Translations under genes and position numbers: made by a program
DNA from: Escherichia coli
Lineage (GTDB): Bacteria > Pseudomonadota > Gammaproteobacteria > Enterobacterales > Enterobacteriaceae
Assembly: GCF_050920415.1 (NCBI RefSeq)
Contig: NZ_CP169309.1
Reading direction: 5' to 3' (one strand)
DNA: 64,000 nucleotides
Shown here: positions 21,752 to 54,462 of the stretch, in pieces
Numbering within the stretch: position 1 is the first letter of the stretch
Layout: every line of letters starts with the position of its first letter
The notes under the pieces: model-generated
Databases searched by the model: none
What the model was told of the DNA's origin: nothing
The model's input: the letters and a program-made list of their open reading frames with translations, nothing else

Positions 21752-22048
21752 TTAGCGATAGCCTTCTTCTGTATGCAGCAAGGCAAAAAGTTCTGCAACT
21801 CCATTGTTATTAACCGCACTGGTTACTAACACATTGTGCGCTCCAGCTTCCCGTAACCAACTTTTCACCAAAGATATTTGTTCCATACTGGCTAAATCTG
21901 CTTTGGTGACTACTCCAATGACCGGGCGATTCATTGACGAGGTAAAGCCTGGCGAAAAAGGTGACCACGGTGCGTCCGCATTAAGTACCAGCGCGATAAT
22001 GTCTGCTTCGCAGGCACTGACTAACAGAGCACTGTAGAGGCTGCGGTT
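21752..22048 (-). pseudogene. yoeF: Remnant of a EutP/PduV-family GTPase gene (yoeF-like); N-terminal P-loop part missing or scrambled
   Basis: The minus-strand frame reads ...[53 protein letters not shown]...LLHTEEGYR. An in-frame stop lies at 22049-22051 and there is no GxxGxGKT. Weak upstream traces (..HRQKAG..) appear in ORF 22049..22270. Confidence 0.6.
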
Positions 22049-22519
22049 TTATCGGTGAGGACTGGCAGCAAGATTTCCAGCCTTTTGACGGTGGGCCTGT
22101 GCAATCGTTATCAGATTCGTATAGCGATTATTCAGTGCTGCTATTGATAGCAGCTGAAAGCGAGATATCCGTACCAGAATAGCTCCCTCATTCTGAGGGA
22201 ACGACGGTAATTTTGATTGCAGAACACAATGCCCGTTTGCTGAATGGTCCGGCTGGTGGGGCTGTAGCATTAATCCATTATTTGAATGAAATCAGTCATG
22301 CCAGAGAAACCGCTGTCAATGACGCATTTTGTCGGACGTTAACACGAGGAAGTCTGGCTATTCCGCAATGCCATCTTCTTTCGTAATGGATTGAGAATGC
22401 TGGATTTTTAATTATATTACGCGCAGTATTAATCGCGTAAATGTTTTGCGGTCAGCAACAGTGGGGGAACCATTGTTCTGTTCAATGAATACCATCATAC
22501 AATTGAATCAGGAGTCGGT

Positions 22520-24896: not shown

Positions 24897-25694
24897 AAAC
24901 GAAAAGTCTGATAAAAGCTATACTTATCGGATAGTATTCGCGACTTAGGAAAGGGACATGATGCGTCGTGTAAATATTTTTTGCTCATTTGCTCTACTTT
25001 TTGCCAGCCATAATAGCCTGGCGGTAACTTATCCATTACCTCCAGAGGGTAGCCGTTTAGTGGGACAGTCGCTTACTGTAACTGTTCCTGATCACAATAC
25101 CCAGCCGCTGGAGACTTTTGCCGCACAATACGGGCAAGGGTTAAGTAACATGCTGGAAGCGAATCCGGGGGCTGATGTCTTCTTACCGAAGTCTGGCTCG
25201 CAACTCACCATTCCGCAGCAACTGATTTTGCCCGCCACTGTTCGTAAAGGGATTGTGATTAACGTCGCTGAGATGCGTCTTTATTACTACCCGCCAGACA
25301 GTAATACTGTGGAAGTCTTTCCTATTGGTATCGGCCAGGCTGGGCGAGAAACCCCGCGTAACTGGGTGACTACCGTTGAACGTAAACAAGAAGCACCAAC
25401 CTGGACGCCAACGCCGAACACCCGGCGCGAATATGCGAAACGAGGGGAGAGTTTGCCCGCATTTGTTCCTGCGGGGCCTGATAATCCCATGGGGCTGTAC
25501 GCGATTTATATTGGCAGGCTATATGCCATCCACGGTACCAATGCCAATTTTGGTATTGGGCTCCGGGTAAGTCAGGGCTGTATTCGTCTGCGCAATGACG
25601 ATATCAAATATCTGTTTGATAATGTTCCTGTAGGTACTCGTGAACCGCCCCGGAAATCCTGGAGACTAAACTTCCTGAGAAAGAGGTAAACAGG

Positions 25695-26021
25695 ATGACT
25701 AAAAATACTCGTTTTTCCCCCGAAGTCCGTCAACGCGCAGTTCGTATGGTTCTGGAAAGTCAGGGCGAATATGACTCACAATGGGCGGCAATTTGTTCCA
25801 TTGCTCCAAAGATTGGCTGTACGCCAGAGACTCTGCGTGTCTGGGTTCGCCAGCATGAGAGGGATACCGGGAGCGGTGATGGTGGGCTCACCACCGCTGA
25901 ACGTCAGCGTCTGAAAGAGCTGGAACGTGAAAATCGTGAACTGCGCCGCAGTAACGATATCCTTCGCCAGGCTTCCGCTTATTTTGCGAAGGCGGAGTTC
26001 GACCGCCTCTGGAAAAAATAA
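25695..26021 (+). CDS. IS3-family transposase OrfA (HTH)
   Basis: 108-aa ORF ([22 protein letters not shown]...). An A6 slippery run at 26013-26018 lies just before its stop. Confidence 0.92.
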
Positions 26022-26908
26022 TGCCACTGCTGGATAAGCTGCGTGAGCAGTACGGGGTCGGACCGGTATGCAGTGAACTGCATATTGCCCCGTCAACGTA
26101 TTACCATTGTCAGCAGCAGCGGCATCATCCTGATAAACGCAGTGCCCGTGCGCAGCGCGATGACTGGCTGAAGAGAGAGATACAGCGCGTATACGATGAA
26201 AATCATCAGGTGTACGGTGTGCGTAAAGTCTGGCGTCAGTTGTTACGGGAAGGAATCAGGGTGGCCAGATGTACAGTGGCGCGCCTCATGGCGGTTATGG
26301 GACTTGCCGGTGTTCTCCGGGGTAAAAAGGTCCGCACTACCGTCAGCCGGAAAACCGTTGCCACAGGTGACCGCGTAAACCGTCAGTTCGTGGCAGAACG
26401 TCCTGACCAGCTGTGGGTGGCTGATTTTACTTACGTCAGCACATGGCAGGGCTTCGTCTATGTGGCGTTCATCATTGATGTGTTTGCCGGATACATCGTG
26501 GGGTGGCGGGTCTCATCGTCTATGGAAACGACATTCGTGCTGGATGCGCTGGAGCAGGCGTTGTGGGCCCGTCGTCCGTCTGGCACCATCCATCACAGCG
26601 ATAAAGGCTCTCAGTATGTGTCACTGGCCTATACGGAGCGACTAAAAGAAGCAAAACTGCTGGCATCAACAGGGAGTACAGGCGACTCGTATGACAACGC
26701 GATGGCTGAGAGCATCAATGGTCTTTACAAAGCGGAGGTAATACACCGTAAGAGCTGGAAAAACCGTGCAGAAGTGGAACTGGCCACACTCACGTGGGTG
26801 GACTGGTATAACAATCGACGATTGCTGGGAAGGCTGGGCCATACTCCTCCGGCAGAAGCAGAAAAAGCTTATTATGCTTCCATCGGAAACAATGATCTGG
26901 CAGCCTGA
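26021..26908 (+). CDS. IS3-family transposase OrfB (DDE catalytic domain)
   Basis: 295-aa ORF in the -1 frame relative to orfA. DDE residues sit in the contexts WVADFTYV, HHSDKGSQY and DNAMAESING. Confidence 0.92.
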   Translation: MPLLDKLREQYGVGPVCSELHIAPSTYYHCQQQRHHPDKRSARAQRDDWLKREIQRVYDENHQVYGVRKVWRQLLREGIRVARCTVARLMAVMGLAGVLRGKKVRTTVSRKTVATGDRVNRQFVAERPDQLWVADFTYVSTWQGFVYVAFIIDVFAGYIVGWRVSSSMETTFVLDALEQALWARRPSGTIHHSDKGSQYVSLAYTERLKEAKLLASTGSTGDSYDNAMAESINGLYKAEVIHRKSWKNRAEVELATLTWVDWYNNRRLLGRLGHTPPAEAEKAYYASIGNNDLAA

Positions 26909-27228
26909 GTTCACAGATAAAACACTCTCCAGGAAACCCGGGGCGGTTCAACTCGTGTACAAATTATTGATCAGCCAGTGAAATACACAACGGAACCGGA
27001 TGGATCAAAGTGGCTGGAAGTTCATGAGCCACTGTCGCGCAACCGTGCGGAATATGAGTCAGACCGAAAAGTGCCTTTGCCAGTAACGCCATCTTTGCGG
27101 ACGTTCATTAACGGGCAAGAAGTTGATGTGAATCGCGCAAATGCTGCATTGCAGCGCCGATCAGGAATGCCTGTGCAAATTAGTTCTGGTTCAAGACAGA
27201 TGTTTTAAGAGCGTTGTTAATTAGAAAG

Positions 27229-36259: not shown

Positions 36260-37330
36260 ATGTTTTTAGCATCATTGTTGAGACGTATTGCATTTAGTTA
36301 CTACGATTATAAAGCTAATAATTTCAATATTGAAAAAACAGAGTTTGTTGTCATCCATATTCCCGATCAGATTGGCGATGCTATGGCTATCTTTCCAGTG
36401 ATTCGGGCGCTTGAATTGCATAAAATCAAGCATCTTTTAATTGTTACTTCGACAATTAATTTAGAAGTCTTTAATGCGCTCAAACTTGAACATACTAAAT
36501 TAACATTAGTCACAATGACTATGCAGGATCACGCAACATTAAAAGAAATAAAAGATTTAGCGAAGAACATAACACAGCGATACGGTACGCCGGATCTTTG
36601 TATAGAGGCGATGCGTAAAAAGAACCTGAAAACGATGTTATTTATCAGTCAGTTGAAAGCAAAAACGAATTTTCAGGTTGTCGGTTTAACCATGAAGTGC
36701 TATTCCCCTTTGTGTAAGAACGCCTCCCGGATGGATCAACATCTCCGGGCTCCCGTACCCATGACATGGGCGTTTATGATGCGTGAAGCGGGTTTTCCTG
36801 CAGTCAGGCCAATATATGAATTACCATTAAGCGAGCAGGTAATAAATGAAGTACGTGAGGAATTGTGCACTTTAGGATCTTACATTGCGCTTAATTTAGA
36901 TGGCAGCGTGCAGGAACGCACATTTTCGTTATCAGTAGCTGAGAAACTCATCGCCAAAATTCAAAGTGATAATGATATGCCAATAGTCATTGTTCATGGA
37001 CCAAAAGGGGAAGATAAAGCCCGGAAATTAGCGGGTTGTTATAATAATGTCTACCGGCTATCCTTATCACCCTCGATTAAACGTTCAGCAGCAATCATAA
37101 AAGATGCTTATATCGCAATAACCCCTGATACCTCAATATTACATATGGCAAGTGCCTATAATACCCCCGTCGTTGCAATTTATGCTGATTACAAAACGCG
37201 GTGGCCTGCGATGGCAGATATCTCGGAGTCAGTGGTCGTTGGGCAAAAAATTGATCATATAAGTTTGGATGAATTCGGAAAGGCGCTAAAAAGTGCTTTG
37301 GAGAGAGTATGTGTCAGTACTTACGTATAG
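36260..37330 (+). CDS. yeeL: Glycosyltransferase family 9 (heptosyltransferase-like) protein; uninterrupted here
   Basis: ORF 36197..37330, with the ATG at 36260 (MFLASLLRR) following AGG-rich SD-like sequence. Its IGDAMAIFPVIRALE N-terminal motif and ITPDTSILHMASAYNTPVVAIY C-terminal motif are typical of GT9. Low GC. Confidence 0.75.
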   Translation: MFLASLLRRIAFSYYDYKANNFNIEKTEFVVIHIPDQIGDAMAIFPVIRALELHKIKHLLIVTSTINLEVFNALKLEHTKLTLVTMTMQDHATLKEIKDLAKNITQRYGTPDLCIEAMRKKNLKTMLFISQLKAKTNFQVVGLTMKCYSPLCKNASRMDQHLRAPVPMTWAFMMREAGFPAVRPIYELPLSEQVINEVREELCTLGSYIALNLDGSVQERTFSLSVAEKLIAKIQSDNDMPIVIVHGPKGEDKARKLAGCYNNVYRLSLSPSIKRSAAIIKDAYIAITPDTSILHMASAYNTPVVAIYADYKTRWPAMADISESVVVGQKIDHISLDEFGKALKSALERVCVSTYV

Positions 37331-37706: not shown

Positions 37707-45695
<7,989 letters not shown>

Positions 45696-46107
45696 GCTTA
45701 CCTTCCCTGAACGAGCTAACATAAATGCGCCCTTTCTAGCACAGCGAAAAAATATAAATCCTGATAGCAATATGATTGAAAATTAATAACTTTTCGTTAA
45801 GCAGTTTTGGGTGTGAGTTGCAAGAGGGGAGACTACTGAATAACTCAGTTTAATAATTGAGGGGGCAATGGTGACGAATATAGGGACGGAGTAGAGAAGA
45901 TAGTGCTGAACTCTTTGCCAGCAGAAGGTTATGTGGCACAAAAATAACCGTAACTTCTCACTCTCGACAGGAAAGCTGTAGACGGCGTCCATAACAAAAC
46001 GCCCCCAACCATAAGGTCGAGGGCGCTTAAGATGACAAACCCGCTCTTCGTTAAAGAATCAATGCTTAATGTAGATGAGTTGCATTGCACGATAAAAGCG
46101 AATTTTT

Positions 46108-46128
46108 AGAATTTGGCTCCTCTGACTG
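46108..46128 (-). repeat. Partial tRNA-Asn 3' end (att-site direct repeat of the asnT islet)
   Basis: GAATTTGGCTCCTCTGACTGG is identical to 54382..54402, which covers the 3' end of asnT plus 5 flanking nt. Similarity to the tRNA stops after GACTGG. Confidence 0.9.
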
Positions 46129-46462
46129 GGATCGCCGTAGCCATTAACAGGCTGATTGGTAAAGCTAAAAAAATTTGAGTTTGTCAAGACCACCAGAATG
46201 ACCACCATTTTAAAGTAACATTTGAAGTTTACTCAGTAGCACCTTTAGCTTCACTTACAATCAATTAACCTGTGAAGATAGCTGTACCTACAATCGCAAT
46301 AACTTATTACAGATCCGACGACAAACATCACCTGTTATCCACTCTGGCACTACCGTGCATGATAATCAATAAGTCGGGTGCTGGCTTGCAAGGCAATTGC
46401 GTTGTAATGTACCAAATCCCAGTTCGCCTTCACTCTAAAATGCCCCGACGTTTCGAACGCGT

Positions 46463-47341
46463 TTACGGTAAATAATGCGTGACAATCTGCAGGAACTCAT
46501 CCCGCATCTGGTTGTCGATTTTCGGATTCCATGCCACACCAATGTTCCATATGATCTGCTTTCCCCACAGAGTAATCAGCTTGACTCCTACAGGTAAAAA
46601 ATTCTCGACGCTGGCGGGTAGCAGCGCGAGACCATTCCCTCCGGCTATCAATGCTAGCAGGGAATGAATATCATTCGTCGCAGAGATTGGCTCAATGATG
46701 AGTTCATTATCCCGCAGGAACGCAGTCGTTTGCTCCGCCAGACAAGGGCTGACCGCTGGATCCATGCATAAAATCGGATAGATTGCCAGCGTACGCTGGA
46801 GATCGGTGGGATCAATATCGACGGCTACCGGGACAGCCAACACCAGATTTTCTTTATTTATTAAGCGAGAGGCCAATAATTCTGTTACCGGCATACGAAC
46901 AAAACCAGCATGCAGTTCACCTTCCATCAACATCCTAGCTTGTACGCTGGAGGCAATTTGGCTGATAACAACGTCGCAGTCGGGAAATTTCTGGCGAAAA
47001 GTGTTAATCCAAACTGGTGTGCTTTTAAACGAAGATATACCAAATCCGAGCACCAGTTTACCCGTACTCCCCTTTTGGATTTCTCTGGCGTAGGTTAAAA
47101 AATCGTGGTGGGATTTCAGCAACTCATAAGCTTTAGCAAACAACTGCCTGCCAACCATCGTCAACACTGCCCCGTGGCGACCACGCAGGAAAAGCTGCCC
47201 TCCGGTCTTCTGTTCGAGCATCTTGATCTGCTTTGAAAGCGCAGGTTGTGTCAGAAATAAAGCTTCTGCAGCTTTATTGTAGTTTCCCTTTTCCGCCAGT
47301 GTCACAAATGCACGCAGCAGCCTTATATCTATTCCTGACAT
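46463..47341 (-). CDS. LysR-family transcriptional regulator, divergent from the islet operon
   Basis: 292-aa ORF with N-terminal wHTH (LRAFVTLAEKGNYNKAAEALFLTQPALSKQIKMLE) and a C-terminal substrate-binding domain. Confidence 0.88.
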   Translation of the reverse strand: MSGIDIRLLRAFVTLAEKGNYNKAAEALFLTQPALSKQIKMLEQKTGGQLFLRGRHGAVLTMVGRQLFAKAYELLKSHHDFLTYAREIQKGSTGKLVLGFGISSFKSTPVWINTFRQKFPDCDVVISQIASSVQARMLMEGELHAGFVRMPVTELLASRLINKENLVLAVPVAVDIDPTDLQRTLAIYPILCMDPAVSPCLAEQTTAFLRDNELIIEPISATNDIHSLLALIAGGNGLALLPASVENFLPVGVKLITLWGKQIIWNIGVAWNPKIDNQMRDEFLQIVTHYLP

Positions 47342-47567
47342 TTATTGAATCCTGAAAAATTGGAATTATACAAATACTCGCAACAGATGACATGATGCGT
47401 AAAATGATTTACGCCGAGATCCCCTTGGTTTGTCAAACTCAGAAACGCCATACCTGCTGCTCTTGGTTCTATTTAACACTCACTAATGCGCAGGTTATTT
47501 ATAAAAATTGACCTCATAAATCATTCAAAAACATTAATTATATAAATACAATAAGGATTAAATATTT

Positions 47568-48167
47568 ATGCCAAATATTGCCGTTCTCACTAATGACCTG
47601 CAGTATGAGTTTACCTACAAAATAACACGCTCTCCAGAAATTCTGGCGCAAAAACTCGTCCAGTTTAATCAGTTTCTCGATGGCATTCGCGCTCTGGATC
47701 AATCCATTATCCACCTGCAACTTATCAACGATCCTAATGACCCGGCGGTACAAAAGCGCTATCGCAACCGCGAAGCGGGCATTCCTGCACTAGCTGGTCG
47801 CCCGGAAAACCAGATTATCGATAAAGTATACCGCCCCACAGATCTGGTTGTAGTCAAGGGCAGAGACAGCGGTTTTTTTAATAACGATCTCGACGAAATC
47901 CTCCAGCAACTCGGGGTAAAAACCGTAATCGTTACCGGGTTGCAAACTCATGTTTGCGTGCAGACCACTGCAGCGGATGCCTTCTTTCGCGGCTATAACG
48001 TCTGGGTACCGGGCGACTGCGTGTTCGCTCCTTCGTCCGAAGATACAGAGCGTGCACTCGAGTGGCTTGCCAGCTATTGCGCAACTGTAGCACCTTCTGC
48101 GGAAATTTTATCAATATTGCAAAAACAGAACGATCTGCCTGAGCGCGGCGAAAGGGAAGCATCATGA
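47568..48167 (+). CDS. Isochorismatase-family (cysteine) hydrolase
   Basis: 199-aa ORF. The family Asp-Lys-Cys triad appears in its usual contexts: IAVLTNDLQYEF, VVVKGRDSGFF and VIVTGLQTHVCVQTTAADA. Confidence 0.8.
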   Translation: MPNIAVLTNDLQYEFTYKITRSPEILAQKLVQFNQFLDGIRALDQSIIHLQLINDPNDPAVQKRYRNREAGIPALAGRPENQIIDKVYRPTDLVVVKGRDSGFFNNDLDEILQQLGVKTVIVTGLQTHVCVQTTAADAFFRGYNVWVPGDCVFAPSSEDTERALEWLASYCATVAPSAEILSILQKQNDLPERGEREAS

Positions 48168-49195
48168 GCTTAACCCAGACGCTAAATCATGAAGAGGTCG
48201 TTGTACTGGATCATGGCACCGGGGCGAAATTAAGCCGCGAGTTGGTTGAAAAAATTGCTAGCATTCTCGGTGACACCTATCTGGGCGTGATGGAAGATAG
48301 CGCGGTGCTGGGGTTATCCACCAGGCGAATTGCCTTCACCACCGACTCCTTTGTTGCCACGCCGCTGATTTTCGGCAACGGTGATATTGGCAAAATCGCC
48401 GTATGCGGCACCGTTAACGATCTCGCTGTCAGTGGGGCTCGTCCCCTTTACATCACACTCAGTCTTATTATTGAGGAAGGTATGCCGATGGCTGATCTGG
48501 TCAGAATCATCGAGTCCGTACGTGAAACGGCTCGTGAGGCAGAGGTCAAGATTGTCGCTGGTGATACCAAGGTCGTAGGTAAAGGTGAAGCAGATCGGCT
48601 GTTTATCAATACTGCTGGCATCGGCGTGTTTGAACATCCGCCAGTCTCAGTTAAGAACGTGCGTCCGGGGCAGAAAATAATCCTGAGCGGATATATCGGC
48701 AATCACTCGATTCACCTGCTGTCGATGCGGGAAGGATTGGGGTTCGAGCGAAATATTCTTAGTGATTGCGCACCGCTGAACCACATTATTGACAAACTTA
48801 TCAGCAACATCCCTGAAGGCAAAATAGCGTCAATGCGAGACGTTACGCGCGGTGGGCTGTCCGCTGTTTTACACGAACATGCGCGCGCAACAAATTATCA
48901 GATTCATTTCGACCAGCCATCTTTGCCCATACAGCCGGAAACCGCCATGGCAGCTAATATGCTGGGTGTTGACGTCATTAATCTCGCTAATGAAGGTTGT
49001 TTGTGCCTGTTTGTTGAACCTGAGTATGCTCAGAAGGTACTACATTTGCTGCAGGAGCATCCTGTCGGCAAGCACGCGACAATTATCGGCGAGATCACCG
49101 CTGTCTCGGGTACTGAAGTCTATATGATTGAAGCTGATGGAACACACACAGAAGTCGAGGAATTATATGGCGCAGAATTACCCAGACTCTGTTGA
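48164..49195 (+). CDS. HypE-like PurM-superfamily protein (carbamoyl dehydratase-like) ending in ...PRLC
   Basis: 343-aa ORF alignable along its length to my recollection of E. coli HypE (FTTDSFV, GNGDIGKIAVCGTVNDLAVSGA, IVAGDTKVV, LFINTAGIG, RDVTRGG, NLANEG). The C-terminal PRLC corresponds to the canonical PRIC. Its start overlaps the upstream stop (ATGA). Confidence 0.85.
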   Translation: MSLTQTLNHEEVVVLDHGTGAKLSRELVEKIASILGDTYLGVMEDSAVLGLSTRRIAFTTDSFVATPLIFGNGDIGKIAVCGTVNDLAVSGARPLYITLSLIIEEGMPMADLVRIIESVRETAREAEVKIVAGDTKVVGKGEADRLFINTAGIGVFEHPPVSVKNVRPGQKIILSGYIGNHSIHLLSMREGLGFERNILSDCAPLNHIIDKLISNIPEGKIASMRDVTRGGLSAVLHEHARATNYQIHFDQPSLPIQPETAMAANMLGVDVINLANEGCLCLFVEPEYAQKVLHLLQEHPVGKHATIIGEITAVSGTEVYMIEADGTHTEVEELYGAELPRLC

Positions 49196-51545
49196 GCTTC
49201 ACGAGACGCCGGAAACCCGGCGTTACCGCATCTGTGGGGTCGTTCAGGGCGTTGGATTTCGTCCCTTTGTTCACCGACTGGCCCGCACCTATGGTGCCAC
49301 CGGCTGGGTGTTAAACGATTCAGAAGGCGTGTTGCTTGAGCTGCAGGCATCCGGCACGGTTATTGCCAGAATCATGGACAAACTGGTGACCGAGGCACCA
49401 CCACTGGCAAAAATCATCAGTACGCAGGAAGTTAGCCCAACGGATACCAGAGCGCACTATGAAACGTTCAGCATCCGTAAAAGCCGCGATCATACCAGCA
49501 TGGACACGATTATCCCGCCAGATACCAACGTCTGCAGCGATTGCCTGCGCGAGATAAGCGATCCTGATAATCATCGTTATCGTTACGCTTTCACCAATTG
49601 CACCAATTGTGGGCCGCGCTATTCCATTATTCTTGGTATGCCTTACGATCGTGCCCAGAGCACTATGCGTAAATTCCCTTTATGTCCAACCTGTGAGCGT
49701 GAATACAACGATATTGAGGATCGACGCTATCATGCCCAGCCCAATGCCTGCCCAGTTTGCGGCCCACAGTTGCAACTTACCGATCGACAGGGCACATCCG
49801 TTCACACAGATGATATTGTCAAATTTGCCATTACGAAACTAAAAGAAGGCGGAATTCTTGCAATAAAGAGCCTTGGTGGCTTTCATCTCGTGGCCGATGC
49901 TTGCAATGAGAATGCTGTCAATGAACTTCGGCAACGCAAGCGAAGAGACGCCAAACCTTTTGCAGTGATGGTCGCGGATGTGGAAAGCGCGTCGCGTATT
50001 GCTTTCATCCCCCCCTGTAATCACAAATTGCTGGAAAGCCCGCAGCGTCCCATTGTCTTGTTGTATAAGCGCAACGTCCTGCTGGCGAGTACCGTTGCGC
50101 CACATAATCCGAACATCGGTGTAATGCTGCCTTCAACGCCGCTTCAGCATTTATTGCTGGAAGACCCGTCTCTGCCGATCCTGATTATGACCAGCGGTAA
50201 TATTTCCGGTCATCCGATCGTCTTTGACAACGACATGGCAATTAAGCAACTCGGGAAAATCGCGGATTACTTCATTCTGAATAATCGCGATATTCATACG
50301 CGTGTTGACGATTCGGTGGTCCGCACGGTGTTTCTCAACGACGCCATTACCTCGCAGCTATCGTTTTTGCGCCGCTCCCGCGGTTACGCGCCATACCCTA
50401 TTCATCTACCTTACGCAGTGGATTCCGTTATCGCGCTCGGGGCGGAGCTAAAAAACACGATCAGCATCGGCAAAGGAAAACAGGTTTTTCTGAGCCAGCA
50501 TATTGGCGATCTTAAGAATAACGTGACTTTTAAATCACATATCGAATGTATTGATCATCTTCAAAACCTGCTGAACGTGAAGGCAAATGTCGTGGCCTGC
50601 GATTTGCATCCCTCTTTCCGCTCTACCCGGCATGCGCTGGAGAATTTAGAGCATCAGGTTGTTCAGGTTCAACACCATCACGCGCATATGGCATCCTGCA
50701 TGGCGGAAAATGGCCTGTCAGGTACTACTCTAGGCGTAATTTTTGACGGTACAGGATATGGCACCGACGGCACCATTTGGGGCGGTGAGTTTCTCGTTGG
50801 TGATTTCGAAAAATTCGAGCGTGCAGGATGCTTGCGTTCAATGACCCTGCCCGGAGGCGATCGGGCAGTTAAAGAGCCGCTGCGCGTCGGCATCTCCTTA
50901 CTGGTGGAAACCTTCGGCGAAGATATCAGTACGCTCGCAGTACCAGGCTTGCAGGCGCTCCAGCCTCAGCAGCGCGATATATTCAGTAAAATGGCGACCA
51001 GAAAAATCAACACCACCACGACCAGCAGCATGGGCAGACTATTTGACGGCATCGCCGCGCTGATGGGCGTTTGCACTCAGGTGGAGTACGAAGCCCAGGC
51101 GGCCATTGAACTGGAAGCGCTGCTGCAGTGTAAACTTCATATGACGGCTCCGTTCAGCTACATCATTGCCGATGTCGAGAATAAGCTCGAGGTGGATTAT
51201 CGCCCGATGATAAGGGAACTGGTGCAATGCTTCAGCCAGCCCGGTTTTGATATGGCCGAACTAAGTCGGCGCTTTCACTCTACCATCGTCGACATGATTT
51301 GCGAGGTCTGTAAACGTCTGGTGGCACGCTCAGGCACGCAACAAATTGTCCTGAGCGGCGGCGTGTTCTGCAATGAATTCATCCTCGTTAATTCTCTTAA
51401 CAGTCTGGAGTCTTGTGGATTCCGGCCTTACAGCCATCAGTTAGTTCCGACTAACGATGGTGGTATTTCATTGGGGCAAGTGGTTATTGCTACCGCATAC
51501 ACTCGCGCAACGCGCAATAAAAATCTGGAGAGAGAAAATGCATAG
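49167..51545 (+). CDS. HypF-like carbamoyltransferase with all four domains (acylphosphatase, 2 x Zn-finger, YrdC-like, Kae1-like)
   Basis: ORF 49128..51545, with the ATG at 49167 preferred (GAGG SD 6 nt upstream). Motifs: VQGVGFRPF (acylphosphatase); CSDC-x18-CTNC and CPTC-x18-CPVC; ILAIKSLGGFHLVADA (YrdC-like); QVQHHHAHMASC (Kae1/HypF metal site). Confidence 0.88.
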   Translation: MAQNYPDSVELHETPETRRYRICGVVQGVGFRPFVHRLARTYGATGWVLNDSEGVLLELQASGTVIARIMDKLVTEAPPLAKIISTQEVSPTDTRAHYETFSIRKSRDHTSMDTIIPPDTNVCSDCLREISDPDNHRYRYAFTNCTNCGPRYSIILGMPYDRAQSTMRKFPLCPTCEREYNDIEDRRYHAQPNACPVCGPQLQLTDRQGTSVHTDDIVKFAITKLKEGGILAIKSLGGFHLVADACNENAVNELRQRKRRDAKPFAVMVADVESASRIAFIPPCNHKLLESPQRPIVLLYKRNVLLASTVAPHNPNIGVMLPSTPLQHLLLEDPSLPILIMTSGNISGHPIVFDNDMAIKQLGKIADYFILNNRDIHTRVDDSVVRTVFLNDAITSQLSFLRRSRGYAPYPIHLPYAVDSVIALGAELKNTISIGKGKQVFLSQHIGDLKNNVTFKSHIECIDHLQNLLNVKANVVACDLHPSFRSTRHALENLEHQVVQVQHHHAHMASCMAENGLSGTTLGVIFDGTGYGTDGTIWGGEFLVGDFEKFERAGCLRSMTLPGGDRAVKEPLRVGISLLVETFGEDISTLAVPGLQALQPQQRDIFSKMATRKINTTTTSSMGRLFDGIAALMGVCTQVEYEAQAAIELEALLQCKLHMTAPFSYIIADVENKLEVDYRPMIRELVQCFSQPGFDMAELSRRFHSTIVDMICEVCKRLVARSGTQQIVLSGGVFCNEFILVNSLNSLESCGFRPYSHQLVPTNDGGISLGQVVIATAYTRATRNKNLERENA

Positions 51546-52278
51546 TTCTGCGAACCGTATTGCCGCTGTTTTATTCGATATGGATGGTGTCCTTATTGAT
51601 TCCAATGCGGTGATTGAGCGCGGCTGGGCTGAAGGCGCACAGATGTTTGGCAAGACGCTAACGGAAGAGGATATCGTCAGGCATATTCACGGACAGCCCG
51701 GCCCGCATACCATTCGCGCCCTGTTCAGCGACCTTTCCCTGGAAGATCAAAAGAAGGTCCAGTCACATATCATCCACGTTGAAAATACCGCTGATTACGA
51801 CCCGATCCCTGGAGTTAGCGAACTTATCCAGGCGTTGCATAAGGCTGGCATCAGTGTGGGGATTGTCACTAGCGGCTGGCGGTCGAAAATCGATCGTATT
51901 ATGGAGATGCTGCAAATCACGCCCTGTATTTCAGTGATTGTCGAACGTGATGATGTCGTGCGCGGCAAGCCTTATCCCGATCCTTATCTGCTTGCCGCAG
52001 AGCGGTTTCATCTTGCACCGTCCAGAACACTGGTCTTTGAGGATTCAAGAAGCGGCGTAACATCTGCTGTTACAGCAGGCGCAATTTGTGTTGGCATCGG
52101 TACAGACAGTCTGAAAGAGTGCGGTGCCGTGCTTGCAATTACAGATTTTCGTAATGTGAAAATCACCTCACAGACAGGCGAAAAAGTAGTGATTGCCTTT
52201 ACTCCAGAGCACCAGATGGAGATGGAAACTCAGAGCTCTCGTAAGAAAACATCCTGTACCACAAGAGAAGAGTGCTAA
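51538..52278 (+). CDS. HAD-superfamily hydrolase (subfamily IA, beta-phosphoglucomutase/sugar-phosphatase-like)
   Basis: ORF 51457..52278, with the ATG at 51538 (MHSSANRIAAVLFDMDGVLIDS) overlapping the hypF-like stop (ATGCATAG). HAD motifs: DMDG, TSG, K-x-PYPDPY, FEDS. Confidence 0.85.
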   Translation: MHSSANRIAAVLFDMDGVLIDSNAVIERGWAEGAQMFGKTLTEEDIVRHIHGQPGPHTIRALFSDLSLEDQKKVQSHIIHVENTADYDPIPGVSELIQALHKAGISVGIVTSGWRSKIDRIMEMLQITPCISVIVERDDVVRGKPYPDPYLLAAERFHLAPSRTLVFEDSRSGVTSAVTAGAICVGIGTDSLKECGAVLAITDFRNVKITSQTGEKVVIAFTPEHQMEMETQSSRKKTSCTTREEC

Positions 52279-53471
52279 TGAATATCACACAGAAGGGACG
52301 CTGGGCTGTCACTATGCTATTTTTTATCAATGGCTTCGTCACCGGAGGTTGGGCTGTGCAAATTGCACAGCTTGTACCACGCTTTGGCGTGACCGACAAA
52401 GTGATCGGCCATTTAATTCTGATCTTCGGATTCGGTGCACTAACCATGATGCCCATATCAGGCATTCTGATGGAAAAGATGGGGACACAAATCGTAACGC
52501 GTATTTTTGCCCTTGCAGCCTCCCTGGCATTAATTCCGGTTGGTTTAGCCACCACCCCATTAGTGTTGATGCCAGCGTTATTTGTTCTTGGTGCGATGAT
52601 TGGTGCCATGAATGTAGCGATGAACTCGAATGCCGTGGCGGTGGAGAGATCACTCTCACAAGCGATTTTATCCTCCTGCCATTGCTTCTGGAGTATCGGC
52701 CTATTTGCGGCGGGCTCGATAGGCGGCCATCTTGTTGAACAATTTGGCTTTTTGACGCATATCTTTTTGATTAGTGCCGTGGCCTTAATACTGACGCTGA
52801 TTATCGCTCCGGCCATTTTTAAAGACATACAGACGGTTAAATCCACCAGCAGACAGACCACCCGGTTGCCTCGTTCTCCGGCGATTTATCTGATTGGATT
52901 GATGGCTTTTCTGGCCATGATCCCTGAATGCGCTGTTGTTGACTGGTCGTCACGCTATTTGATTAAAAATCTCAATGCAAAAACAGAAATCGCCAGCCTT
53001 GCCTTCGCCTGCTTTGCTGTAGCAATGGCCTTGTTTCGCTTTATGGGTGACGTGATCCGCAACCGCTTCGGCGCAATATTAATTATACGAATCTCCAGCT
53101 TACTGGCAGGCGCTAGCCTATTGTTGAGCGCACTGGCACACAATCCCTGGCAGGCGATCTGCGCATTTACCTTAGCGGGAATCGGCATCGCCAACCTTGT
53201 GCCCATTGTCTTTTCCGCAGCGGGAAATCAGCCCAATATTTCCACCAACACAGGAATGAGCATTGCCACAACCATTGGGTATTTAGGCACGCTAATGGCC
53301 CCTGCGCCTATTGGCTATATTGCGGAAATAACCGGTTTTCCAGTGGTTTATTGCGGACTAGCTTTCATGTCGGGAATTATCTTTTTGCTGGCACCACTGG
53401 TTCGGGGGGCAGAAATCTCTGTACAGCGGCAGCGAGCCTCAAACAAACACCAGAATACCGGAGCGTTGTAA
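52278..53471 (+). CDS. MFS transporter
   Basis: ORF 52272..53471, with the ATG at 52278 overlapping the HAD stop (TAATG). Roughly 12 hydrophobic helices throughout. Confidence 0.85.
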   Translation: MNITQKGRWAVTMLFFINGFVTGGWAVQIAQLVPRFGVTDKVIGHLILIFGFGALTMMPISGILMEKMGTQIVTRIFALAASLALIPVGLATTPLVLMPALFVLGAMIGAMNVAMNSNAVAVERSLSQAILSSCHCFWSIGLFAAGSIGGHLVEQFGFLTHIFLISAVALILTLIIAPAIFKDIQTVKSTSRQTTRLPRSPAIYLIGLMAFLAMIPECAVVDWSSRYLIKNLNAKTEIASLAFACFAVAMALFRFMGDVIRNRFGAILIIRISSLLAGASLLLSALAHNPWQAICAFTLAGIGIANLVPIVFSAAGNQPNISTNTGMSIATTIGYLGTLMAPAPIGYIAEITGFPVVYCGLAFMSGIIFLLAPLVRGAEISVQRQRASNKHQNTGAL

Positions 53472-53922: not shown

Positions 53923-54060
53923 ATGAGCAAATTAAGTAGTGAAATGAAGGCCCTGACGAAGAAAGCAGGCGGCAGCTTCAAAACGGTAAATGACCGTATC
54001 CATATTACAAAACGGTTCAGTGAGCATTTACGCGAACTGAACATCCAGATCCGGCGGGTA
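53923..54060 (+). pseudogene. Possible N-terminal stump of a second tyrosine-recombinase-type gene
   Basis: MSKLSSEMKALTKKAGGSFKTVNDRIHITKRFSEHLRELNIQIRRV resembles, from memory only, the N-terminal domain of a class of island or plasmid integrases. The frame then runs into antisense sequence of the P4-type integrase stump. Confidence 0.3.
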
Positions 54061-54225
54061 TGCGCCAAGACTGACTCTGGATTCTTTTCCGTTGAAACGA
54101 TATTTGAGATACCAGATGCGTGAACCGCCCGGATTGACGAGCAGATACAGACCGTGAGAGTCGGAGAGTTTTACCGGACGGGAAGAGGTTTTTAACTTGC
54201 GGATTTTAGAATCGTTTAAAGACAT
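54055..54225 (-). pseudogene. N-terminal ~57-codon stump of a P4-type (tRNA-associated) integrase
   Basis: MSLNDSKIRKLKTSSRPVKLSDSHGLYLLVNPGGSRIWYLKYRFNGKESRVSLGAYP matches the conserved DUF4102/Arm-type N-terminus of P4-like integrases. It starts ~160 bp from the asnT 3' end. No catalytic domain follows. Confidence 0.8.
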
Positions 54226-54386
54226 TTGGGGGTCACTCCAGAATCGAACCAAACTGACCCCAGATCTGACCACCAAATTATCCCGATGCGGAGAGAAAAC
54301 CAGATACGCACCGGGGAGGATTTTCACGCTAACTTACTGAACCGTAAACAAATAGAGATGTACAGATAAGCATGAAAACTTGAATT

Positions 54387-54462
54387 TGGCTCCTCTGACT
54401 GGACTCGAACCAGTGACATACGGATTAACAGTCCGCCGTTCTACCGACTGAACTACAGAGGA
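54387..54462 (-). tRNA. asnT: tRNA-Asn (GUU)
   Basis: 76 nt, identical to the other three copies. Adjacent to mtfA as in K-12. Confidence 0.95.

Follow-up and report, generated by a model that had tools for sequence, protein, structure and literature searches.

A HypE/HypF clade with a cysteine hydrolase partner, carried in an asnT islet of Escherichia coli and very probably acting outside [NiFe]-hydrogenase maturation

Introduction

HypE and HypF are textbook single-purpose enzymes, which provide the cyanide ligands of [NiFe]-hydrogenases. In the canonical pathway HypF turns carbamoyl phosphate via carbamoyl-AMP into an S-carbamoyl group on the C-terminal cysteine of HypE, HypE dehydrates this adduct with ATP to S-cyano, and HypC/HypD accept the cyano group on iron. 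The protein thiocyanate is an electrophilic cyanyl donor. As HypE and HypF are regarded as single-purpose, databases label every homologue as a hydrogenase maturation factor. Here, a HypE/HypF-type pair is analysed which is encoded together with a cysteine hydrolase, a phosphatase and a transporter in an islet at the tRNA gene asnT, within a 64-kb stretch of an Escherichia coli chromosome (the window, to which the coordinates below refer unless another sequence is named). This pair shares with the canonical pathway (3VTI, 2I6R, 3TSP) the protein families at equivalog level, the domain architecture and the PRxC tail with its C-terminal cysteine. Unlike the canonical genes, those of the islet clade are ordered hypE then hypF and often overlap, HypE ends in PRLC, and a hydrolase usually stands where HypC, HypD or a hydrogenase would be expected.

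Carbamoyl chemistry of a related kind is found in natural-product clusters, where the YrdC-Kae1-type enzymes TobZ, NovN and GdmN use carbamoyl phosphate and ATP via carbamoyl-AMP to carbamoylate a metabolite directly. The islet HypF has YrdC-like and Kae1-like domains in common with them, but whereas these enzymes lack the acylphosphatase domain, the zinc fingers and a HypE-type carrier/dehydratase, the islet module keeps the full HypF together with HypE.

The preliminary description of the locus knew of no characterised pathway with this gene set, and none was found in the full-text literature, although subscription-only papers, in which a precedent could exist, lie outside that coverage. Orphan hypE/hypF genes as such had been remarked upon, since the decRiPPter study noticed Streptomyces hypE/hypF beside an ATP-grasp ligase at a site where further hyp genes are missing, for which a 'novel function' was proposed (PMC7794033). 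Beyond that one-paragraph notice, the present analysis adds a phylogeny, the hydrolase partner, the distribution outside Streptomyces and a proposed mechanism.

The islet HypE/HypF pair

The HypE-type protein (48164..49195, plus strand; 343 aa, PurM fold, C-terminus ...GAELPRLC) and the HypF-type carbamoyltransferase (49167..51545, plus strand; 792 aa) both exceed the equivalog cut-offs of their families, with 415 bits for TIGR02124 (cut-off 251.6) and 788 bits for TIGR00143 (cut-off 466), respectively. HypE is composed of the PurM-type AIRS N- and C-terminal domains (PF00586 and PF02769), while HypF possesses all five domains (acylphosphatase, two zf-HYPF, YrdC-like and Kae1-like) and aligns end to end with PDB entry 3VTH (640 bits). 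The acylphosphatase loop, the two CxxC-x18-CxxC fingers and the HHHAH motif of HypF are intact, and the islet HypE keeps 53 of the 61 columns that are at least 94% conserved in canonical HypE. As the signature motifs and most of the canonical HypE columns are kept, the machinery for carbamoylation and dehydration looks functional.

The finding's surrounding 7.2 kb are 100% identical in strain MFDS1022581 (NZ_CP169399.1), the chromosome of which carries in the usual arrangement hypABCDE (1,098,790-1,102,407), the hyc operon, hydN and hypF (1,116,481-1,118,733), 0.9 Mb from the islet. Because this canonical set is complete in the identical genome, the islet pair is an extra copy, and the possibility raised beforehand that hyp genes have merely relocated is ruled out. 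The islet proteins are 41% (HypE) and 40% (HypF) identical to the canonical proteins of the host, and the Caldanaerobacter proteins of PDB entries 3VTI/3VTH are closer to them in sequence than E. coli's own. At the DNA level, blastn against E. coli genomes aligns islet and canonical hypF only over a 77-bp zinc-finger patch, and this in some strains. Neither a HypC motif nor a HypD motif nor a hydrogenase gene is present in the whole 64-kb window, as had been claimed; the islet HypE shows no genomic association with a hydrogenase and the islet HypF no membership of a hyp/hydrogenase regulon.

That the pair forms a lineage of its own, which had been proposed as a check, is borne out by neighbour-joining trees of modest samples (56 HypE and 16 HypF sequences, 200 bootstraps). 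The clade is monophyletic outside the canonical clades in 188/200 replicates (94%) for HypE and in 183/200 (92%) for HypF, the canonical E. coli proteins are distant, and the topologies of the two trees are congruent. A tblastn search with HypE of 72,556 plasmids is bimodal, with 10 records at 56-80% identity and canonical copies at no more than 44%, and in a library clustered at 50% identity the clade appears as one full-length representative (439 bits) followed by the next match at 323 bits.

The clade is also recognizable by its C-terminus. The terminal cysteine is kept and preceded by leucine instead of the isoleucine of the canonical proteins: 118 of the 120 closest homologues end in PRLC, mostly as GAELPRLC, the two exceptions being fragments, and so does every complete metagenome HypE of the clade, whereas 128 of 150 canonical HypE representatives carry PRIC. 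Further residues that are invariant and specific to the clade HypE are G41, N72 (glycine in canonical proteins), H184 and M262, besides L342. Members occur in Enterobacterales, Burkholderiaceae, Alteromonadaceae, rhizobia, myxobacteria and actinomycetes; database homologues with 59-89% identity are found in Serratia, Enterobacter, Salmonella, Klebsiella, Citrobacter, Buttiauxella, Brenneria, Lonsdalea, Burkholderia, Trinickia, Sorangium, Cystobacter, Streptomyces and others. HypC and HypD motifs, which lie directly upstream of hypE at canonical control loci, are found neither at the clade loci nor at 80 metagenome loci, with the exception of the HupF/HypC of a neighbouring hup cluster in Paraburkholderia.

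Two arrangements at the margin of the clade may be added. A sister group is represented by locus L033 (2457-6472; JGI metagenome 3300032157), where a 49% identical HypE with a PRLC end is encoded in the order hypF-hydrolase-hypE, with a DegT-type aminotransferase gene ahead of it and a nucleotidyltransferase-like gene as well as ABC transporter genes behind; it looks like another variant, which may act on an aminosugar. In a metagenome-assembled genome of Lachnospiraceae (L021/L022, 10001-13318) a PRLC HypE-HypF pair follows a polysaccharide-biosynthesis cluster and four small open reading frames.

The cysteine hydrolase partner

The first gene of the E. coli operon encodes an isochorismatase-fold cysteine hydrolase of 199 aa (47568..48167, plus strand; Pfam PF00857, 112 bits). 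Its AlphaFold2 model (pLDDT 91.4) has RutB, BiuH, TrtA, CSHase and maleamate amidase as Foldseek neighbours, with a probability of 1.0 for RutB, BiuH and CSHase. With RutB, BiuH, TrtA and N-carbamoylsarcosine amidase the hydrolase has the fold (TM ~0.78), the Asp-Lys-Cys triad and a similar size in common; these characterised relatives are cysteine amidohydrolases whose targets are terminal carbamoyl or amide groups. It differs from them in sequence (22-28% identity), in an invariant second cysteine and in its occurrence almost only beside a PRLC HypE. As the low identity goes along with scores far below the equivalog cut-offs (54 bits against 378 for RutB and 51 against 370 for BiuH), the protein belongs to the superfamily without falling into any of the named enzyme families. 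The triad Asp10-Lys97-Cys130 and the second cysteine, Cys171, are invariant in 33 homologues, and Cys130 and Cys171 could form a thiol/disulfide pair. Cys171, within a YCA motif, is also kept in the 49%-identity sister clade, and a glycine occupies this position in the CSHase-related structure 3EEF.

The preliminary description had listed the hydrolase as one among several partners of small-molecule type. Present it is, but linkage counts single it out as the core partner. Among the 72,556 plasmids, the 10 that encode a hydrolase of at least 43% identity are the 10 that encode the clade HypE, and further hydrolase matches do not exceed 35%. In metagenomes, a scan seeded solely with the hydrolase alignment gave 80 loci, of which 31 encode a full-length protein of at least 43% identity and 49 a distant (at most 40%) or partial one; a PRLC HypE lies within ~270 nt at 27 of the former and at none of the latter. 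Look-ups from the hydrolase side in two unsampled lineages, Alteromonadaceae and Micromonospora, again found the trio of hydrolase, HypE and HypF, and when 13 loci are compared, the divergences of these proteins from their E. coli counterparts are rank-correlated (Spearman 0.90-0.98 for the identities). These counts make a strong case that the hydrolase is a regular, if not invariable, adjacent partner of the clade HypE/HypF; where the context of a clade member could be read, such a hydrolase gene adjoins hypE in almost all cases.

A further metagenome locus, L091 (Ga0078972_1000130), combines a hydrolase of 35% identity with a HypF-like gene (35% identity, 95% coverage) less than 8 kb away, with no HypE detected; this pairing may be a coincidence or a remoter arrangement.

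Genomic neighbourhoods

Compared across lineages, the conserved unit is the trio and not the five genes. The expectation that the five genes recur as a unit holds for a plasmid of Salmonella diarizonae, which carries the same six genes as E. coli including lysR, and for several enterobacterial metagenome contigs, but the HAD, MFS and LysR genes are confined to one variant. In this HAD-type class, the E. coli kind, which is found in Enterobacterales, Burkholderia and Alteromonadaceae, the LysR and/or MFS genes can be absent or extra genes inserted (Enterobacter, Burkholderia and an Alteromonadaceae genome). Enterobacter has LysR and hydrolase-HypE-HypF-HAD, Citrobacter plasmids have hydrolase, HypE, HypF and HAD, and Burkholderia has the Enterobacter-type set plus GlmS-isomerase-like, amidohydrolase, MFS and nitrilase-family genes with transposases on the flanks, the gene for the GlmS isomerase domain being located inside the operon. 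In the case of the Alteromonadaceae, the operon is followed by a GT2 glycosyltransferase gene, an MFS gene and a bona fide glmS (855 bits).

In a second class, the trio is combined with a diaminobutyrate transaminase in the order (GNAT)-hydrolase-HypE-HypF-transaminase. This Dab-type class is found in Paraburkholderia, at locus L029, in Streptomyces, in Micromonospora, at a locus with polyketide synthase-nonribosomal peptide synthetase (PKS-NRPS) genes and at six metagenome loci, and its transaminases exceed the TIGR00709 cut-off. The transaminase-family gene directly follows hypF at four fetched loci and at the six metagenome loci, while in Paraburkholderia, where ectB and a GNAT gene accompany the trio on symbiosis plasmids, ectB lies upstream. 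As in the ectoine pathway EctB-EctA-EctC, the module is thus accompanied on its flanks by a small GNAT gene and a gene of the diaminobutyrate transaminase family in Paraburkholderia, L029 (GCA_049487195), Streptomyces and Micromonospora; unlike that pathway, the Dab-type module is devoid of EctC and has the trio in its stead. This arrangement suggests that the Dab-type module modifies the side-chain amine of diaminobutyrate, which would therefore receive a one-carbon-one-nitrogen substituent instead of undergoing an acetyl-derived ring closure.

A third class is embedded among NRPS/PKS genes, with the trio adjoining giant NRPS genes in Sorangium and Cystobacter, lying within an NRPS cluster in Streptomyces and downstream of PKS-NRPS genes at one metagenome locus. 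The Cystobacter cluster encodes SbnA/SbnB equivalogs for diaminopropionate, one Streptomyces NRPS-type locus a serine hydroxymethyltransferase and a glutamine amidotransferase, and the myxobacterial clusters contain glutathione S-transferase (GST) genes. Additional trio loci are those of a Rhizobium leguminosarum plasmid (with DMT and ABC transporter genes), of a Streptomyces clavuligerus plasmid (with agmatinase-like, ATP-grasp and DUF3865 genes), and L029 and L031. Several of the transporters encoded in the neighbourhoods are of the ABC_membrane/ABC_tran, the MacB/FtsX (with membrane-fusion protein) and the EamA/DMT type. Judged by gene content, the common denominator of the neighbourhoods is a supplier of a primary amine together with an export function.

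Two side observations concern single loci. The clade-type hydrolases of L051 and of L060/L061 (46-50% identity) have no HypE in the flanks available, and an agmatinase-like gene ~3.8 kb downstream at L061 resembles the divergent S. clavuligerus arrangement. On the pSym plasmid of Paraburkholderia phenoliruptrix (L024, 1-5260) the trio lies ~4 kb from the hup [NiFe]-hydrogenase cluster, and a second, canonical hypE is present on the plasmid.

A proposed small-molecule module

The separate clade, the extra copy and the recurring unit devoid of HypC/HypD favour the view, put forward in the preliminary description, that HypE and HypF have been repurposed here, and the islet module very probably operates outside hydrogenase maturation. 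To what end is less certain. The reading preferred here, to which we assign a probability of roughly 55%, is that the trio constitutes a small-molecule module in which a carbamoyl or cyano unit activated by HypF/HypE would reach an amine metabolite by way of the hydrolase, the product being dephosphorylated and exported in E. coli. To judge from the conservation of both proteins, HypF would still place a carbamoyl group from carbamoyl phosphate on the C-terminal cysteine of HypE at the expense of ATP, and HypE, likewise with ATP, would dehydrate this adduct to a thiocyanate bound to the protein. In place of HypC/HypD, the cysteine hydrolase would offer a small-molecule pocket and a nucleophilic cysteine and may act as relay, transferase or processing enzyme. 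The one-carbon-one-nitrogen unit would then arrive on the primary amine of a metabolite, a placement proposed because of the amine-supplying neighbours, to yield a cyanamide-, guanidine- or ureido-type product. In other lineages this amine would be diaminobutyrate or diaminopropionate, often destined for NRPS/PKS lines, whereas the acceptor of the HAD-type module of E. coli would probably be a phosphorylated amine such as glucosamine 6-phosphate, with HAD removing the phosphate, the MFS protein exporting the product and LysR in control. We infer all these chemical steps, and likewise whether the pathway builds or degrades its compound and which acceptor it uses. The chances are about even that the acceptor is an amine at all, and glucosamine 6-phosphate as the E. 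coli acceptor is a tentative and rather doubtful choice.

Several observations weigh against this proposal. The role of the hydrolase is assigned by analogy; since the relatives known so far cleave carbamoyl groups, the enzyme could break the adduct down instead of transferring it. A gene that would supply an amine is missing from the E. coli islet itself, the glucosamine 6-phosphate idea derives from two lineages only (Burkholderia and Alteromonadaceae), and the MFS protein could be an importer. With respect to linkage, four of the 31 clade-type hydrolase loci, representing three arrangements, show no HypE in their flanks; two of them have less than 0.85 kb available downstream, while the hydrolase of L051 (2764-3333), with ~3 kb on both sides and no HypE, is a genuine exception. 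Conversely, the Lachnospiraceae pair has no hydrolase in the 10 kb upstream, its contig stopping ~70 bp past hypF, and the trio of Paraburkholderia stands beside a hydrogenase cluster. Finally, the module decays in places. In E. coli AST85 (L034, 3669-4257) the hydrolase gene is split and frameshifted by an 11-bp deletion, and in Lonsdalea britannica (L002, 10001-10822) hypE is truncated and no intact hypF is present, with hydrolase, HAD and MFS kept; because of these two cases the module has to be considered dispensable.

A bolder form of the proposal, which we consider speculative and on the whole unlikely, is that the thiocyanate of the PRLC HypE serves as a protein-borne 'CN+' donor for organic amines, with the hydrolase as cyanyl relay or transferase and N-cyano intermediates proceeding to cyclic guanidines. 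If so, diaminobutyrate would give rise to a 2-amino analogue of ectoine and, in modules of the E. coli type, glucosamine 6-phosphate to a 2-amino-oxazoline-type aminosugar, and NRPS/PKS clusters would be supplied with such building blocks. Enzymes would then have a hitherto unknown way of making C-N triple bonds or guanidine groups, and Hyp cyanation its first non-metal acceptor.

Among the alternatives to a module that decorates an amine, two are improbable to the same degree. In the first, the trio would generate free cyanide or thiocyanate, with the hydrolase releasing the S-cyano group as HCN, SCN- or cyanate to serve as toxin, signal or diffusible reagent (for instance for aminonitriles on NRPS products). 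The hallmarks of HypE/HypF chemistry are indeed kept, the invariant C130 and C171 could resolve a mixed disulfide after release of CN-, the nitrilase-superfamily gene of Burkholderia and the GST genes of the myxobacteria could provide self-protection, and exporters are common neighbours. Such a generator, however, leaves unexplained why genes that supply diaminobutyrate, diaminopropionate or glucosamine 6-phosphate adjoin the trio in many lineages and why the E. coli variant would need a phosphatase, and its islet is without cyanide-resistance functions.

In the second, no nitrile would be formed; HypE would merely carry S-carbamoyl, and the hydrolase would transcarbamoylate via an S-carbamoyl-cysteine as in RutB, so that diamino acids or aminosugars would be converted into N-carbamoyl (ureido) or cyclic-urea derivatives. 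All of the characterised enzymes closest to the hydrolase act on H2N-CO-X groups via a cysteine-bound intermediate, and amine-supplying neighbours fit this carrier equally well. The full body of a PurM-type ATP-dependent dehydratase, kept in 53/61 columns and at equivalog score, would however be superfluous for a mere carrier, and simpler carbamoyltransferases of the ornithine transcarbamylase (OTCase) or TobZ type exist for N- and O-carbamoylation.

Less probable still is a catabolic or detoxification operon, in which the MFS protein would import a carbamoyl-, ureido- or cyano-compound (or HAD would handle a phosphate ester), the hydrolase would degrade it and HypE/HypF would be accessory. 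While LysR, transporter, hydrolase and phosphatase make up a layout typical of enterobacterial catabolic islets and the relatives of the hydrolase are catabolic enzymes, two ATP-consuming activating enzymes have no obvious degradative role, the same trio resides inside NRPS/PKS clusters beside building-block synthases, and several of the neighbouring transporters belong to families that commonly export, their direction being deduced from family membership. That the pair represents spare or specialised hydrogenase-maturation paralogues feeding cyanide to the HypC/HypD of the host or to another Fe-CN cofactor is hardly credible, as the equivalog scores and annotation of both proteins and the NifA co-regulated Paraburkholderia trio beside a hup cluster are opposed by a separate clade with an altered C-terminal motif, by loci that never adjoin HypC/HypD but regularly, if not invariably, a cysteine hydrolase, by canonical copies already held by the hosts and by contexts of NRPS, aminotransferase, phosphatase and exporter genes.

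If the module indeed acts outside hydrogenase maturation, the consequences extend beyond E. coli. A horizontally mobile clade that is decoupled from HypC/HypD, with hosts as diverse as E. coli, Salmonella, Citrobacter, Enterobacter, Burkholderia, bacteria with rhizobial symbiosis plasmids, myxobacteria and actinomycetes, would correct the annotation in hundreds of genomes, such as that of the NifA-regulated 'hyp' genes of Paraburkholderia phymatum. Genome mining would gain a new biosynthetic cassette, and the clade could reveal new chemistry, namely the cyanation or carbamoylation of amines via a protein thiocyanate. The definition of the clade, its PRLC signature, the hydrolase partner, the breadth that includes E. 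coli and Salmonella, and the amine-supplier theme appear to be new, and there is a real chance of new enzymology. With just five genes and a regulator, the module is minimal in E. coli, and since this host is genetically tractable, the question is directly testable.

Maintenance and expression

Within E. coli two divergent alleles of the module differ mostly by synonymous changes, with a pN/pS of 0.13-0.22 based on small counts. Expression has been recorded in a Dab-type host. In bean nodules of P. phymatum, hypE (Bphy_7271), hypF (Bphy_7272) and the flanking ectB and GNAT genes drop by 5-8 log2 units in a nifA mutant, in which diaminobutanoate levels fall as well (PMC8305402). Apart from the trio, this plasmid encodes a canonical hyp set (Bphy_7253-7261); in nodules both sets depend on NifA, and all these hyp genes were classed by the authors as hydrogenase genes (PMC8305402).

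Operon structure and regulatory region

Besides hydrolase, HypE and HypF, the E. coli operon encodes a HAD-IA phosphatase of 246 aa (51538..52278, plus strand; HAD_2 113 bits, DMDG motif in the translation) and, as its final gene, an MFS transporter of 397 aa (52278..53471, plus strand; Pfam MFS_1, the start at 52278 being that of RefSeq). The phosphatase reaches only 114 bits against PRK11587 (cut-off 282), its nearest characterised relative being the sugar/hexitol phosphatase HxpA/YfbT with 33% identity, and forms a discrete subfamily linked to the trio. Profile searches with the MFS protein gave weak subfamily matches only; its orthologues in Salmonella and Lonsdalea are 58-62% identical. 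A LysR-family transcriptional regulator (46463..47341, minus strand; Pfam HTH_1 and LysR_substrate, RefSeq WP_000014150.1) is encoded divergently, with orthologues of 52-59% identity at the equivalent position in Salmonella, Enterobacter and Lonsdalea. Profile searches thereby uphold the order and families of all six genes as first described.

The junctions reported for the five genes are likewise exact in the sequence. The hydrolase stop and the hypE start share ATGA (48164-48167), hypE and hypF overlap by 29 nt from the hypF ATG at 49167 to the hypE TGA at 49193-49195, hypF and HAD meet in ATGCATAG (51538-51545), and HAD and MFS in TAATG (52276-52280); the RefSeq annotation of NZ_CP169399.1 has identical starts and stops. 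From these overlaps, and as promoter- and terminator-like sites inside the operon do not exceed chance, we infer that the five genes are co-transcribed. No terminator-like site is found downstream of the MFS gene. The 29-nt overlap of hypE and hypF recurs in Enterobacter, Burkholderia, Sorangium and Alteromonadaceae; in Salmonella it is 26 nt, and in further lineages 7 nt or none.

In the intergenic region shared by lysR and the operon, the perfect dyad GCGTAAA-ATGA-TTTACGC with its 7-bp arms is located at 47397..47414 as initially noticed, just upstream of the -35 element of a sigma-70-like lysR promoter (47365..47393, minus strand), which is a match of 10/12 to the consensus (ATGTCA-17-TATAAT). 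Its position beside this -35 makes the dyad a plausible candidate operator. As a conserved LysR operator it is rejected, since it is absent from the orthologous LysR/hydrolase intergenic regions of Salmonella, Enterobacter, Lonsdalea and Burkholderia; the lysR -10 and 5' leader are the sole block that is conserved across the enterobacterial orthologous regions.

The asnT islet and its surroundings

The operon and its regulator lie in an islet of ~8.3 kb which is integrated at asnT and has the gene of a giant yeeJ-type adhesin on its other side. The tRNA-Asn gene (54387..54462, minus strand, by ARAGORN) is the integration site, its 3' end forming the proximal copy of a 16-nt direct repeat, TGGCTCCTCTGACTGG; the distal copy at 46114..46129, identified by exact-match search, marks the other boundary. 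In the same search, the other copies of TGGCTCCTCTGACTGG, including that of asnT at 54387, proved to be 3' ends of Asn tRNA genes. Remnants of a P4-type integrase, fragments of the Arm DNA-binding domain (53923..54327; Pfam PF13356, RefSeq pseudogene annotations), lie beside the tRNA gene. Because of the repeat at 46114 and 54387 and these integrase remnants, the locus is considered a tRNA-integrated islet, which substantiates the earlier designation as an asnT islet; the tRNA 3' end, the direct repeat, the integrase remnants and the variable presence among strains are the features of a tRNA-integrated genomic island.

Among 5,426 complete E. coli genomes, 16 carry the islet (at least 99.1% identity), in every case on the chromosome, and the same asnT site is occupied in all three genomes of which the flanks were read (that of the window and two other strains). 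Base composition is uninformative as a marker of foreign origin, with 49.4% GC in the islet and 47.9% in the window. An anti-phage defence system was also considered and rejected, as no PADLOC model matches any of the six proteins.

Further features of the window lie upstream of the islet. The stretch ahead of cobUST contains pseudogene remnants (21754-22388), namely a fragment of EutP/PduV type and a gene of cobalamin biosynthesis that is interrupted by an internal stop. Beside an Asn tRNA gene, a frameshifted transposase gene of the IS3 family splits the L,D-transpeptidase gene at the ldtA/erfK position (24960-27208). A family-9 glycosyltransferase gene (36260-37330) is located between shiA and the adhesin gene, and the yeeJ-type adhesin with its Ig-like repeats (37707-45770; 2,662-2,687 aa) is frameshifted in strain AST85.

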